Origin: Cytophagales bacterium
Lineage (GTDB): Bacteria > Bacteroidota > Bacteroidia > Cytophagales > Cyclobacteriaceae
NCBI GenBank assembly: GCA_034440075.1
Contig: JAWXBL010000005.1
Location: forward strand, 34,678 to 98,677
Reading direction: 5' to 3'
Length of the DNA stretch: 64,000 nt
Part shown: positions 7 to 4,819 of the stretch, piece by piece
Position numbering within the stretch: position 1 is the stretch's first letter
Layout of the letters: every line of letters begins with the position of its first letter
Program-made: the position numbers and the translations under genes
Notes under the pieces: generated by a model
Told to the model about the DNA's origin: nothing
Seen by the model: only the letters and a program-made list of their open reading frames with translations
Databases searched by the model: none

Positions 7-1623
7 ATGCAGGGAATCGTATCCGGAAGGGTGCACAACGCGCTGTACTATCCGCCGATGTTGAACCTCAACAAACTGATTCAACCGGATTTTTCCATCT
101 TCCGTGTGGCGGAAGTTTTTAAGGAACCGATCCTTCGCGAATACGGCGTAGCTTTTTTTAACGGCTACGGAACCGAGATCAACCAGTTTGCGCCGGGCCA
201 CCCTGAATGGGAAGCGGAGCAGTATCGGTTTCTGGGTAGGACGTCACGGATTCTGCGTGAGAACAGTCCGAATTTCCATGGCAAAAATTTCCATCCGCTG
301 GTTACAACACTCCGTGACAGCATCTGGGTCAATCAATGGCCAACGGAAAAAAAGATTATCTACACGATATGGAGTACGAAACCGGAGGGACTGCATGGTC
401 CGCTTTTTGAAATCACTCCGCGGGAAGGATTTCACTGGGTAGATCTTTGGAATCACCGGGAAGCAGAAGTGATTCAACGCGGGGGAAAGCACTTTGTGAA
501 AACGGACATGGATTCGTTCGATGCTGCATATCTCGGAACAAATAACGAAGGGACAGTCGGCTGCCTCGCCGAATTGCAATCCGTACTTACTGCGACGCTC
601 GCAGGGGATGTGCTGACCATGCAGTCGGCAGAAGGATCCATCCGGCTTTGGGCCGGCGATCCGGACTATGAAAAGACGCCGGTTATCCTTGGAACAGGAA
701 GCCATACCATATTTGTCGCACAAACCTTCGGCCGCTTTGAAGGGAAGCTGGTTGTTCAGGCATTTAGCGGTCGGAATCTATTGGACGAATTGGAACTCCA
801 GATAATTCCAGGGAACCCCAGGCTCATCAGCAAGGTATCCTCGGTGCCTGGTGCAGGCTCGGTACCAAAAGGTTTGGTGACAATTCCAGCCGGATCGTTT
901 CAGTTCGAGACAAGCCATGGGGACGCCTTCATTCCTTATCCAGAGGTGTTCGAAAAGGAGGTGGTTGCCTTTCCTTCGTTCTACATGGATCGCTTTCCAG
1001 TAACCAACGAACAGTTTAAGACATTCCTGACCGCGTCTGGCTATGTGCCAGGGGATATCAGTAACTTCCTGAAGCACTGGAGAAACGGGAAAATCATCCG
1101 TGGCCAGGAACGGTTTCCGGTGGTCTATGTATCATACGAAGATGCGGCGGCCTATGGCCGGTGGGCAGGTAAACGGCTTCCGACGGAACGGGAATGGCAA
1201 TACGCGGCACAAACCGAAAAACGTAACGAGTGGCCGTGGAAGCAGTCCAAACCGGTCCGACGCACGGAGCAGGTAGTTACCGAAACATTGACGGTGACGA
1301 CGCTGGAGGGAATCAACCCCAAAAACTGCAACCTGGGGGATGGGATGCCGTATGTTGTAGGAAAGTACCCGGCTGGGGCAAATCCCTTCGGACTGCACGA
1401 CCTTGTCGGCAGTGTCTGGCAGCTCACCAACGACATCTATGAAAGCGGCAGTTACCGGTACATCATGATGAAAGGGGGGAGCTACTTCAAACCGTCTTCC
1501 AGCTGGTGGTATGTTCAGGGAGGGCCACGGGAACTTCACTACCGGCAGTATTTACTGCGCGTATCCGAAGGCTTTGAGCGAAATGCAACGGTGGGGTTCC
1601 GGTGTGTGGTCGACAGAAAGTAG
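7..1623 (+). CDS. Formylglycine-generating enzyme (SUMF1/FGE-sulfatase) domain protein, probably N-terminally truncated by the window edge
   Basis: C-terminal motifs FYMDRFPVTNEQF, RLPTEREWQYAA, NPFGLHDLVGSVWQ and GFRCV. The frame is open to position 1. Confidence 0.8.
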   Translation: MQGIVSGRVHNALYYPPMLNLNKLIQPDFSIFRVAEVFKEPILREYGVAFFNGYGTEINQFAPGHPEWEAEQYRFLGRTSRILRENSPNFHGKNFHPLVTTLRDSIWVNQWPTEKKIIYTIWSTKPEGLHGPLFEITPREGFHWVDLWNHREAEVIQRGGKHFVKTDMDSFDAAYLGTNNEGTVGCLAELQSVLTATLAGDVLTMQSAEGSIRLWAGDPDYEKTPVILGTGSHTIFVAQTFGRFEGKLVVQAFSGRNLLDELELQIIPGNPRLISKVSSVPGAGSVPKGLVTIPAGSFQFETSHGDAFIPYPEVFEKEVVAFPSFYMDRFPVTNEQFKTFLTASGYVPGDISNFLKHWRNGKIIRGQERFPVVYVSYEDAAAYGRWAGKRLPTEREWQYAAQTEKRNEWPWKQSKPVRRTEQVVTETLTVTTLEGINPKNCNLGDGMPYVVGKYPAGANPFGLHDLVGSVWQLTNDIYESGSYRYIMMKGGSYFKPSSSWWYVQGGPRELHYRQYLLRVSEGFERNATVGFRCVVDRK

Positions 1624-1708
1624 CTGAATCAAGTTTGAAAAATCATTCATTATCAATAATTTAGCATCATAGACCTACTTCTTTACTCTAACTAGATTTT
1701 TTTTTGAT

Positions 1709-2563
1709 ATGAGAGCTATTTGGAAAGGCCATATTCGGTTTTCGTTGGTCACCATCCCCATCCGGGTGTATAATGCGATCGACAGCGGACAAACCATCAG
1801 TTTTAATCTGTTGTCGAAGGACGGTCACAACCCCGTCAGCTATGAGAAGAAGGACAAAGTAACGGGCAAGACGCTCAGGCAGGAAGACATTTGCAAGGGC
1901 TACCAGTACGAGCCTGGTCAATATGTCATCATCGATGATGATGACTTTTACAAAGTCAAACTGAAGAGTACCCGGGTGATTGATATCGAAGGATTCGTGA
2001 AGAGTGCGGAAGTACACCCCACGCTCTTTGATGCCCCATACTTTATCGGTCCCGACGGGGAAATCGCTGCGAAGACGTATGCACTCCTGTGTAAGACCCT
2101 GAAAGAATCAGGCAAGATGGGGGTAGGACGGGTGGTGCTTCGCGACCGGGAAACGGTGGTGCTGCTCACCCCGGAGGCGAACGGAATTCTTTTGTACAAA
2201 CTCCGGTATCCCAATGAAGTTAGAAGTATAGGTGAAGTGCCGCAACTTATTGAGAATGTAAAGGTTGACAAGGCTCAGATCAAGATGGCTAAGATGCTTG
2301 TTGACAGTATGTCGAAGCAGTTTGTAGACATTGAGATGAAGGACAACTACCAGGATGCCCTCCGTGGGATGATTCAGGCCAAGATCGAAGGCAAGGAGAT
2401 CGTTACGATTGCGGAAGAGGAAACGCCGGTGGTGGATATCATGACGGCGTTGAAGGCGAGCATTGAAAAGGCGAAGAAGCCGATGGAAAAGGCCAAGGGC
2501 AAGGTCGCCAAGGAAAAGAAGAAGGCGCAGAAGGAAACCAAGGGCCGACGCAAGGCCGGCTAA
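1709..2563 (+). CDS. ku: Ku DNA end-binding protein (NHEJ)
   Basis: MRAIWKGHIRFSLVTIP N-terminus, KGYQYEPGQYVII, PYFIGP, VVDIMTALKAS and a Lys-rich C-terminal tail. Confidence 0.95.
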   Translation: MRAIWKGHIRFSLVTIPIRVYNAIDSGQTISFNLLSKDGHNPVSYEKKDKVTGKTLRQEDICKGYQYEPGQYVIIDDDDFYKVKLKSTRVIDIEGFVKSAEVHPTLFDAPYFIGPDGEIAAKTYALLCKTLKESGKMGVGRVVLRDRETVVLLTPEANGILLYKLRYPNEVRSIGEVPQLIENVKVDKAQIKMAKMLVDSMSKQFVDIEMKDNYQDALRGMIQAKIEGKEIVTIAEEETPVVDIMTALKASIEKAKKPMEKAKGKVAKEKKKAQKETKGRRKAG

Positions 2564-2588
2564 AGTTGTACAGGGTTTTCGGATGCGG

Positions 2589-2596
2589 TATCTTTG
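2589..2596 (+). promoter_or_regulatory. Bacteroidota -7 promoter element for the TPR gene
   Basis: TATCTTTG matches TAnnTTTG; TTG at 2566-2568 lies 20 nt upstream; ATG at 2603. Confidence 0.6.
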
Positions 2597-2602
2597 TCCC
2601 GC

Positions 2603-3199
2603 ATGGCAAAGGTTGTCAAGTTTCCTATCCAGCCTCCCGAGAAATTCGGTTTCAGGCGTGTCCGCAAGAAGCGGGAAGCTCCTGCGAAGCGAAGCAGTCA
2701 GCTCAATTTGTTTACGGGTGGAAAGGTCATCAAGCTCCATCAGCTCAGTGCCTTTGATGAGGCCCTCTTACTGGATGAAAACAATGACAAATCCGCCAAA
2801 GAGCATTACCTAAAGGCCATTGAGGAGGGGGACAGCGTAGCCGACGCCTATTGCAACCTGGGAATCATCGAATCAAAACTCCGCAGCTATCCGAAAGCCA
2901 TTGACTGCTTTACGCTTTCGCTGAAAGAAGACCCCCGGCATTTCGAATCCCATTATAACCTGGCCAATCTGTATGCAGAAATCAATAACCTGCCGCTGGC
3001 CAAGGTGCATTATCAAACGTCTATCGTGTTGGAGCCTGATTTTCCGAACAGCTATTTCAACCTTGGCTTGACGCTGGCGATGAACCAGGAGGTAGATGCG
3101 GCTATCAACACGTTGTTGGAATACCGGCGCCTGGCCTCGGATGATGAGCACAAGCAGGTTGACGAGCTGATTGAATACCTTACCAGGGCCGTCCGGTAA
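2603..3199 (+). CDS. TPR protein with a basic N-terminus and a QLNLF motif
   Basis: TPR signatures AYCNLGII, SHYNLANLY and SYFNLGLTL. ATG start chosen at 2603 (ORF track starts at TTG 2594). Confidence 0.85.
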   Translation: MAKVVKFPIQPPEKFGFRRVRKKREAPAKRSSQLNLFTGGKVIKLHQLSAFDEALLLDENNDKSAKEHYLKAIEEGDSVADAYCNLGIIESKLRSYPKAIDCFTLSLKEDPRHFESHYNLANLYAEINNLPLAKVHYQTSIVLEPDFPNSYFNLGLTLAMNQEVDAAINTLLEYRRLASDDEHKQVDELIEYLTRAVR

Positions 3200-3247
3200 T
3201 ACGATTACCATCACAAATACTAAGGCCCGTTTGCATTCGGAATCTTT

Positions 3248-4057
3248 CTACAGCGCCCAGATCGTTACATAAAAGAGAATCGCCCGGTACAACTCCAGCG
3301 AAAGCCTCAACACTAGGATCATCAGCACTGAACGCACGATCAGTTTGATGCCCCGGTCCTGATAGAACGTGTACCCGGCACGCAGCAGAAAATACAGATT
3401 GGTCATCACCAGGATGGCTGTCAATCCCAACTCGCCCAGCTGCGAACCCCGCAGGAAAACGGAAAGTACGATGGCGTTGATGAACAGGTTGAAGCAAACG
3501 AGTTCTACAGCCAGTCCGGCATGGTCGGTAAAATAGCGGTTCCGTGTTCGGTAAATGAGATTCAAAGGCAAGGAAACGACAATGGCGAACAGAATGACGA
3601 GCATTTTCGCCAGGCCCGCCGTCTTCTGGTCATACAGCAGTTCAAAGGATCGGATATCGCCGATACCCAGGGTGTTCATTTTCCAGACGATGACGTCTAC
3701 GGTATACTCCCCGTGAATCGAATTCATCTGCGTCCGCAGGGATGCATTGAAGAGCTGAATGATGGGGAAAAGGAAATAGACCAGGTTGAGCAAAAAGAAG
3801 AGGGAGAGGGGCCGGAGATACTTCACTCTGCGTCCTTCGGCATGCTCAAGGGAAAGGAATCCCGGCCGGACGACGGTCAACCAGAGTGATTTGATGAACT
3901 TGGTATCTGAAAAGGTCAACGCGGCGAAGATTCCGCGGAGCAGCGTGCGGAAGGAGCGGTCCTTCGGCAGGATCACTTTCTCACCGCATTCATTGCAATA
4001 CAGTCCATGGAACTTGCTGCTGCAACTCTTACAAATGTGTTGAAATTCTTCCGCCAT
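3248..4057 (-). CDS. DUF3667 domain membrane protein
   Basis: N-terminal CxxC...YCNECGEK zinc ribbon, LRPLSLFFLLNLVYF, several TM segments. Confidence 0.8.
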   Translation of the reverse strand: MAEEFQHICKSCSSKFHGLYCNECGEKVILPKDRSFRTLLRGIFAALTFSDTKFIKSLWLTVVRPGFLSLEHAEGRRVKYLRPLSLFFLLNLVYFLFPIIQLFNASLRTQMNSIHGEYTVDVIVWKMNTLGIGDIRSFELLYDQKTAGLAKMLVILFAIVVSLPLNLIYRTRNRYFTDHAGLAVELVCFNLFINAIVLSVFLRGSQLGELGLTAILVMTNLYFLLRAGYTFYQDRGIKLIVRSVLMILVLRLSLELYRAILFYVTIWAL

Positions 4058-4072
4058 GCTATCGCTTCAAAG

Positions 4073-4609
4073 CTAACTGTTTCCGGCAACCGCAAGCTTT
4101 TTCAATTGCCGCAAGGTCTTTCCGGCCCGGCTTATGAACGCCGCGGAGCCGTACGGCACCTTGTCCTCGAGTACCAGAGTCAGTTCGGAGCGCAAGGCCG
4201 GTTGTTCATGGGCGATGTTGAAGAGGACCGTCATGGCAAAGACACGGATCGCTACCGGTTCATTCGCGTTCGTGAGTAATTCAAAACATCGTTCGGCCGC
4301 CTCCCCCTGGAGGGTTCTGGGTATGGCAACAAACTGGAGCAGGCGCAGGGTGTTTCGCCGAACAGCATCGTGGACCCCCTGCGTTCCCAGATTCCGAATA
4401 ACCTTCCGCAGGTGTGGCTTGATCAGGGACGGGTGCTGCTGCACACAATAACTCAGCGGCCAGGATGCCCGCTGCTGCACCACGTAGGAGCCGGTGAGGA
4501 AAAGGTCCATCAACTCAGCAAACCGGGAGGGATCCTCCCCGACATAACCCACAATTTTGCGGCGGATGGCTACGGAATGGTCCCGCAAAAGCGTTTGCAT
4601 CATATTCAT
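4073..4609 (-). CDS. Conserved alpha-helical (HEAT/ARM-like) hypothetical protein
   Basis: Helical repeat pattern (QRASWPLSYC, VRRNTLRLLQ, EPVAIRVFAMTVL). Function not supported. Confidence 0.55.
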   Translation of the reverse strand: MNMMQTLLRDHSVAIRRKIVGYVGEDPSRFAELMDLFLTGSYVVQQRASWPLSYCVQQHPSLIKPHLRKVIRNLGTQGVHDAVRRNTLRLLQFVAIPRTLQGEAAERCFELLTNANEPVAIRVFAMTVLFNIAHEQPALRSELTLVLEDKVPYGSAAFISRAGKTLRQLKKLAVAGNS

Positions 4610-4819
4610 AATCAACAATTTACTTTAAATAAACATCCATAATGAATTGACTGTTAGGATAGTATAATACTTTATATTAGCTTCACATTCCATTTTAAAC
4701 GATACGTTATGCTGGTATTTTTTGCGATCGTTGCCTTTCTGACCTTCCAATTAGGCCATTGTTTCCTGTGCTTCTATCTTATGGATGCACAAAGACACCG
4801 CCAATTGCTGACCAAGGGG

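Follow-up and report, generated by a model that had tools for sequence, protein, structure and literature searches.

At the locus described here, a gene for Ku is followed on the same strand by a gene for a small tetratricopeptide repeat (TPR) protein, which we call the Ku-associated TPR protein. Both genes lie in the window, by which we mean the whole stretch of DNA that was analysed, 64,000 nucleotides from a bacterium of the order Cytophagales, and they are flanked upstream by a gene with an FGE-sulfatase domain and downstream by a DUF3667 gene that converges on the TPR gene. The ku stop codon ends at position 2563 and the ATG of the TPR gene begins at 2603, leaving a gap of 39 nt. This layout had been described in full by a first-pass annotation made from the letters alone, and each of its elements is present; so too, in the translated open reading frame, are the two features that it had picked out in the second protein, a basic N-terminus containing RRVRKKR and the pentapeptide QLNLF. 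The features on which the argument turns are as follows.

7-1623, plus strand: FGE-sulfatase-domain gene, upstream of ku
1709-2563, plus strand: ku, 284 aa (Pfam Ku, 1.7e-44; TIGR02772, 274 bits against a cut-off of 150)
2477-2500, plus strand: K-P-M-E-K-A-K-G, residues 257-264 of Ku, a motif in its basic C-terminal tail that is specific to TPR-linked Ku
2589-2596, plus strand: TATCTTTG, promoter box of the Bacteroidota -7 type (TAnnTTTG), ending 6 nt before the start codon
2603-3199, plus strand: open reading frame of the Ku-associated TPR protein, 198 aa, with matches to TPR families, more than 400 homologues and adjacency to ku
2603-2746, plus strand: basic arm at the N-terminus (residues 1-48; net charge +11), without confident structure in the AlphaFold2 model
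2699-2713, plus strand: QLNLF, residues 33-37, candidate beta-clamp-binding motif
2750-3193, plus strand: acidic TPR domain (residues 50-197) of nine helices, with a net charge of -13
3248-4057, minus strand: DUF3667 gene, downstream of the TPR gene and converging on it

A genome-wide search of the 3.46-Mb assembly (52 contigs) finds one Ku and one LigD. The latter is a protein of 774 aa with the POL-PE-LIG domain order, encoded on contig C2, apart from the contig that carries ku, and the flanks of the ku-TPR locus in the window contain no ligD. On C2 the gene is surrounded by an MFS transporter, an ABC-2 permease, a porin-like protein and an unrelated TPR protein of 419 aa; the idea that further genes of non-homologous end joining (NHEJ) sit beside the detached ligD is rejected, these neighbours being unrelated and mostly concerned with transport. 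The earlier remark that no ligD lies nearby is accurate for the flanks, and the sole copy is indeed on another contig, but it describes only a derived and local state of affairs, because in deeper relatives of this genome's group ligD is retained either next to ku or 1.4-4.5 kb upstream of it.

The Ku-associated TPR protein matches TPR_1, TPR_2, TPR_17 and TPR_11 above the Pfam cut-offs, and its family has no dedicated Pfam or NCBIfam model, its members being annotated only as 'tetratricopeptide repeat protein'. An AlphaFold2 model built with an alignment of 87 sequences has a mean pLDDT of 84.5, and it divides the protein into an N-terminal arm with a pLDDT of 43-53 over residues 1-40, a short stretch at about 67 over residues 41-50, and nine helices at 93-98 over residues 50-197. 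The best Foldseek matches are consensus TPR designs and the TPR domain of OGT, with E values of about 1e-7; these are generic TPR matches, and no specific structural relative emerged among them. The two parts of the protein carry opposite charges, and they do so across the family: the median net charge of the arm is +9 and that of the TPR domain -11, close to the values of the window protein. Per-column entropy resolves three conserved islands in the arm, namely F7-P8, then K14-F-G-F17 followed by basic residues, and finally Q33-F37. The TPR domain for its part holds an invariant asparagine ladder (N85/N119/N153), a second series at exact 34-residue spacing (D81/E115/N149, in which D81 and N149 are invariant and E115 nearly so) and the further invariant residues C84, H113, H117 and H136. 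In the two variants P0202 and P0243, a MerR_1 helix-turn-helix is inserted between the N-terminal motif and QLNLF or QRNLF, which still precedes the TPR domain; such sequences suggest one broader group in which a constant TPR module is joined to a variable N-terminal module. Neither the TPR protein nor Ku matches any of the PADLOC models for anti-phage defence, and membership in a defence system is rejected on that basis.

Conservation within the arm is concentrated on QLNLF. The pattern Q-[LMFA]-x-[LIMV]-F is found in 400 of the 413 non-redundant family sequences, and the remaining 13 are mostly near variants or have truncated N-termini. Among the 400, Q and F are present without exception, the second position is L or M in 397 and the fourth is L in 393, while the third varies among N, D, H, S and P. 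In the alignment of 87 sequences, which reaches down to 39% identity, Q33 and F37 are invariant; four of the five motif positions have an entropy of 0-0.4 bits, as against at least 2.8 bits at the residues just before the motif and at residue 38, and indels fall directly after it. The motif is thus an island in variable surroundings, and with pLDDT values of about 45-55 around it the segment is predicted by AlphaFold2 to be disordered and accessible. The consensus for binding to the bacterial sliding clamp is Q-aliphatic-x-[L/M]-[F/L], of which QLxLF is the highest-affinity form, and in Hda the clamp motif is likewise carried in a disordered N-terminus (PMC11139829). The pentapeptide of the TPR protein is identical to the clamp motif of UmuC, 357-QLNLF-361, which has been crystallised on the clamp (PMC3716654). 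Judged as a sequence, QLNLF has every property expected of a clamp-binding motif and is a candidate ligand of the beta clamp, DnaN.

The motif is also rare in this genome. Across the 3.46 Mb, Q[LM][SDN]LF occurs in just three open reading frames of at least 120 aa: the TPR protein itself, an MFS transporter, where it is probably there by chance, and a hydrolase of the MBL fold, which carries QLSLFG at its extreme C-terminus. With three such frames in the genome and retention in 400 of 413 homologues, a chance occurrence of QLNLF in the TPR protein is rejected. DinB of the same genome carries QISLF near its C-terminus, and Ku and LigD of this genome have no clamp-type motif of their own. A relationship between the MBL hydrolase and the MBL gene that lies beside ligD at another locus of the family, L103, was considered as well and is rejected (BLASTP, 24 bits).

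If the protein does act with Ku, its gene might be expected to travel with ku, and the surveys of gene neighbourhoods bear directly on this point. Among close relatives, species-representative genomes of Cyclobacteriaceae, Ohtaekwangia, Chryseolinea and Pseudochryseolinea provided 80 loci, and ku is found immediately upstream, in the same orientation, in about 74; of the six loci that depart from this, five are cut by a contig edge. The DUF3667 gene and an open reading frame of 181 aa are likewise syntenic across these 80 loci, so that at this range the linkage to ku, taken alone, could be a matter of inertia. At greater distances the picture is more telling. In a sample of 401 Bacteroidota genomes, ku adjoins the TPR gene in 15 of the 16 carriers, and these carriers include four families of other classes, in which the remaining neighbours are not conserved. 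The order is ku-TPR in a KSB1 genome and ligD-ku-TPR both in one 5.8-Mb assembly and on a Krumholzibacteria contig, where the gap is 2 nt. A wider set was pooled from 80 metagenome loci and four loci of other assemblies, 84 in all, of which 70 are informative: ku is directly upstream in 65 of these and about 0.8 kb away in one, while four, all of one subclade, show no ku; the complete order ligD-ku-TPR is found in about 30 of the 70. The gap between ku and the TPR gene has a median of about 45 nt. Adjacency persists down to some 55-60% identity in Ku and 45-50% in the TPR protein, among flanks that are otherwise unrelated and across phyla. Simple inertia within one family is rejected as an account of the synteny, since other classes and phyla keep ku-TPR despite their different flanks. 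There are exceptions: the subclade formed by L102 and L104-L106 keeps QLNLF and has no adjacent ku, and in one genome of the same genus as ours ku and the TPR gene are on separate contigs. A tblastn search at 1e-8 for homologues on plasmids, such as rhizobial Ku loci, returned none.

The distribution of the family points the same way. Of the 401 sampled genomes, 49 encode Ku and 16 a member of the TPR family, and every one of the 16 is Ku-positive (related genomes in this count are not independent of one another); the family was seen in none of the Ku-negative genomes of that sample. The window's own family is represented by 11 genomes, of which four have Ku together with the TPR gene and seven have neither. 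Members are plentiful in bacteria of soil, sediment and wastewater, amounting to hundreds of distinct sequences. The first-pass annotation had named two observations that would count against its reading, homologues without linkage to ku or ligD and a motif that is not conserved. What the survey returned is linkage to ku, and often to ligD-ku, across the classes of Bacteroidota, in KSB1, in Krumholzibacteria and on unassigned metagenome contigs, together with a motif present in all but a few per cent of the family and anchored by its two invariant residues.

The Ku that accompanies the TPR protein is distinctive in its own right. The window Ku (N-terminus MRAIWKGHIRFS) is a bacterial Ku by its TIGR02772 score and its PF02735 match, both listed above, and it matches the solved Ku structures 9vnq and 8v53. 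We placed it in a maximum-likelihood tree of 47 proteins, of which 34 were TPR-linked Ku drawn from every source and 13 were Bacteroidota Ku without this linkage; seven further unlinked Ku loci were left out, no sequence having been recovered from them by the ORF pattern. The tree splits into two clades, both supported at 100/100: one of 35 proteins, 34 linked and one unlinked, and one made up of the 12 other unlinked proteins. The window Ku is a member of the TPR-linked clade, and from this split it follows that Ku proteins from other classes and phyla are nearer to it than those encoded by other families of its class.

The linked clade is marked by the motif K-P-M-E-K-A-x-G in the C-terminal tail. 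Residues P258, M259, A262 and G264 do not vary among 61 linked Ku that range down to 53% identity, and a regular-expression count finds the motif in 134 of 134 Ku from TPR-bearing loci as against none of 13 unlinked Ku. Ten of the 134 had been flagged as non-adjacent by a gap heuristic, and in all ten tblastn places ku upstream of the TPR gene, either directly or at about 0.8 kb. The motif is absent from the mycobacterial Ku in the PDB. The lone unlinked member of the clade, L201, lacks both the tail motif and the TPR partner, a single case that weakly supports a link between the two. The tail is basic, with a median net charge of +8, and in a monomer model of moderate overall confidence (pLDDT 64) it stays below a pLDDT of 50, with no confident structure. 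We infer that K-P-M-E-K-A-x-G may be the peptide on which the TPR domain docks. At the same time, tail motif and TPR partner are both traits of one clade, and for this reason their co-occurrence does not amount to independent evidence of contact.

The two genes may be expressed from separate start sites. TAnnTTTG, the Bacteroidota -7 box, is matched by TATCTTTG in the short interval between ku and the TPR gene; this is the only match in positions 1500-3300, out of 41 in the 64 kb on both strands. In Bacteroidota, 75 of 77 loci have a box of this type 9-16 nt ahead of the start codon, with a spacer that is otherwise variable, compared with four of 68 loci of other lineages that have it at the same position. 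Because the position of the box is conserved though the spacer around it varies, the TPR gene very probably has its own promoter and an mRNA that is leaderless or nearly so. The caution attached to the earlier description, that a separate promoter left co-transcription unassured, was well placed. Given such a promoter, co-transcription with ku is not required, and in Bacteroidota the level of the TPR protein can be set independently of that of ku. No terminator-like site was found on the plus strand between the two genes, so read-through from ku may occur as well.

Overall, we are highly confident that the TPR protein is a functional partner of a specific clade of Ku and part of an NHEJ gene module, a conclusion that draws on linkage, phyletic pattern and conservation. 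Bacterial end joining in these organisms would then probably have a third, candidate partner beyond the two-protein system. The accessory role that the first-pass annotation had put forward is therefore largely upheld by the comparative evidence, above all by the linkage to ku and the conserved motif, with the adjustments that the absence of ligD is a derived, local state and that binding to the clamp is a prediction. On balance, we also lean towards a more specific proposal, namely that the TPR protein is a third, lineage-specific component of bacterial NHEJ, a small adaptor of this Ku clade that would couple ends bound by Ku and LigD to DnaN.

The general course of such a reaction can be sketched. 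Consider a broken end to which Ku and LigD are bound. The acidic groove of the TPR domain would hold a basic peptide of the repair complex, most plausibly K-P-M-E-K-A-x-G in the C-terminal tail of Ku, a motif found only in TPR-linked Ku. The QLxLF peptide in the flexible arm would occupy the hydrophobic cleft of DnaN, and through it the ends bound by Ku and LigD would be linked to a sliding clamp sitting on the same DNA. Tethering of this kind might, for example, support fill-in and sealing by LigD, or it might position Ku or limit it. The fullest form of this model, in which NHEJ in this Ku clade is a three-component and clamp-coupled process, with the TPR protein bridging the Ku tail to the clamp as a counterpart of the Ku-centred scaffolds of eukaryotes, we offer only tentatively, as a possibility. 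In the literature searched we found no report of a role for the beta clamp in bacterial NHEJ, and neither this family nor any bacterial NHEJ accessory with TPRs or a link to the clamp is described there.

The leading alternative retains the partnership with Ku and gives up the clamp. The acidic TPR domain would mask or chaperone the lysine-rich tail of Ku, the targets of the QLxLF and KFGF peptides would be Ku or LigD, and the protein would serve as a regulator or assembly factor of Ku. Such a role would account for the same linkage to ku and ligD as the adaptor does, it sits well with the acidity of the TPR domain, the basic Ku tail and a tail motif that is specific to the linked clade, and it has a precedent of sorts in other bacteria, in which the C-terminus of Ku controls DNA bridging, threading and LigD recruitment, as two published reports state (PMC4889933, PMC9638933). 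Indeed, the QLxLF peptide could dock elsewhere than on DnaN, for example in a hydrophobic pocket on Ku or LigD. What tells against this alternative is the form of the motif, which tracks the clamp consensus position by position, with Q and F invariant, position 2 aliphatic and position 3 free, whereas a peptide that binds Ku or LigD need not do so; moreover, no bacterial Ku-binding peptide of such a form was found in the literature searched. We regard masking or chaperoning of the Ku tail as an unlikely but credible explanation.

Two other accounts are less likely than this one. In the first, the protein would not be a repair factor at all, and would instead regulate the DNA-damage or stationary-phase response by controlling the expression or stability of ku and ligD. 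The MerR_1 helix-turn-helix of P0202 and P0243 invites this thought, but DNA-binding domains are absent from the window protein and from the large majority of family members, AlphaFold2 models the basic arm without confident structure, and it is not obvious what an invariant QLxLF would do in a transcription factor, all of which makes a regulator improbable. Least probable of all, and hardly to be credited, is hitch-hiking, in which an unrelated TPR protein, sharing no function with this Ku clade, would have accompanied it by inheritance or transfer, and QLNLF would serve an unrelated clamp-linked or other role: a few lineages do have the two genes apart (L089, L055, L102, L104-L106) and the TPR gene does have its own promoter in Bacteroidota, but adjacency survives deep divergence, unrelated flanks and the borders of phyla, the intergenic gaps are short, and the family is never found in Ku-negative genomes of the 401-genome sample.

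The adaptor reading, which we prefer, can be set beside several known systems. Bacterial NHEJ is the textbook example of a minimal repair system, consisting of Ku and LigD. The system described here resembles the two-component form known from Mycobacterium tuberculosis, Bacillus subtilis and Pseudomonas aeruginosa, in which a homodimer of Ku acts with LigD: the window Ku is a bona fide TIGR02772 Ku, the LigD of the genome has the three domains POL, PE and LIG, and in most other lineages of the TPR family the TPR gene closes a ligD-ku operon. The two-component form differs in that, as described, it lacks a conserved third protein and has not been reported to be connected with the sliding clamp. 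The Ku proteins differ as well, that of the window falling in a separate clade and bearing an extra tail motif that the mycobacterial structures lack. A second comparison is with proteins that dock on the clamp, such as UmuC, Hda, Pol II (QLGLF) and Pol IV. The TPR protein shares their QLxLF consensus, its pentapeptide is that of UmuC, and like Hda it presents the motif in a disordered N-terminal segment; unlike them, it has no polymerase, AAA+ or other catalytic domain, only a TPR domain of four repeats, and its clamp binding is predicted from sequence.

A third comparison is with eukaryotes, in which the NHEJ scaffolds APLF, XLF, PAXX and CYREN/MRI reach Ku70/80 through short Ku-binding motifs. 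The logic is analogous, since in both cases small non-enzymatic factors would use short linear motifs in disordered arms to organise a complex centred on Ku. The resemblance ends there: we found no relationship in sequence or fold, Foldseek returning generic TPR matches only, and the motif of the TPR protein is proposed to target the clamp rather than Ku.

A conserved third protein would change how bacterial NHEJ is reconstituted and interpreted, especially if that protein ties end joining to the replication clamp. Named strains, Chryseolinea serpens DSM 24574 and Pseudochryseolinea flava SDU1-6, carry the family, so experiments are feasible. If the proposal is true, it raises the question of how Ku rings and sliding clamps share a broken end, and it would provide a simple, testable model of scaffold-mediated NHEJ.

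Two genes lie downstream of the TPR gene, both on the minus strand:
3248-4057, minus strand, DUF3667 membrane protein
4073-4618, minus strand, 181-aa ORF without any Pfam match
In the family to which the window organism belongs, they are kept together 3' of the TPR gene at most loci; both are missing from TPR loci in other classes, so the synteny is family-level only, and we see no sign of a functional tie of either gene to ku. A different neighbouring gene is found beside the detached ligD of the window's own genome, G000:
L206:3024-4283 (contig C2), 419-aa multi-TPR protein, unrelated to the TPR family
This gene is convergent with ligD, pointing toward its 3' end, and the protein is without an N-terminal clamp-type motif region; the adjacency is probably coincidental.

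Within the TPR family, one Cys and three His (residues 84, 113, 117 and 136 of the window protein) are invariant family-wide and lie inside the TPR domain, where, judging from sequence, a metal site is conceivable. One family member carries an additional domain:
L103:5001-5894, P0307, with a DUF433 domain appended C-terminal to the TPR domain
Its motif is QFNLF in place of QLNLF, and its gene is part of a ligD-ku-TPR operon.

The clamp-type motif Q[LM][SDN]LF occurs in only three ORFs of at least 120 aa in G000, among them this one outside the window:
Contig C50:30823-31659 (locus L205), 279-aa MBL-fold hydrolase
The extreme C-terminus of this protein is QLSLFG, which contains a consensus clamp-binding pentapeptide; the hydrolase may be another unrecognised clamp client.

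Four loci (L102 and L104-L106) form one subclade of the TPR family, with an N-terminus of the NVIPF type and QLNLF kept; here ku was not found within several kb of the TPR gene. Two genomes carry both genes in separated positions. In one Cyclobacteriaceae MAG, an ORF lies between them:
L033:5346-5927, 193-aa ORF
From its N-terminal sequence we would guess a REP-associated tyrosine transposase; if so, the locus shows that mobile DNA can split the ku/TPR pair while both genes are retained. In G311, a genome of the same genus as the window organism, the two genes are again both kept, on separate contigs:
L089 (G311, contig C13)
G311, contig C3:8446-9195
G311 is thus a natural case of unlinked ku/TPR partners.
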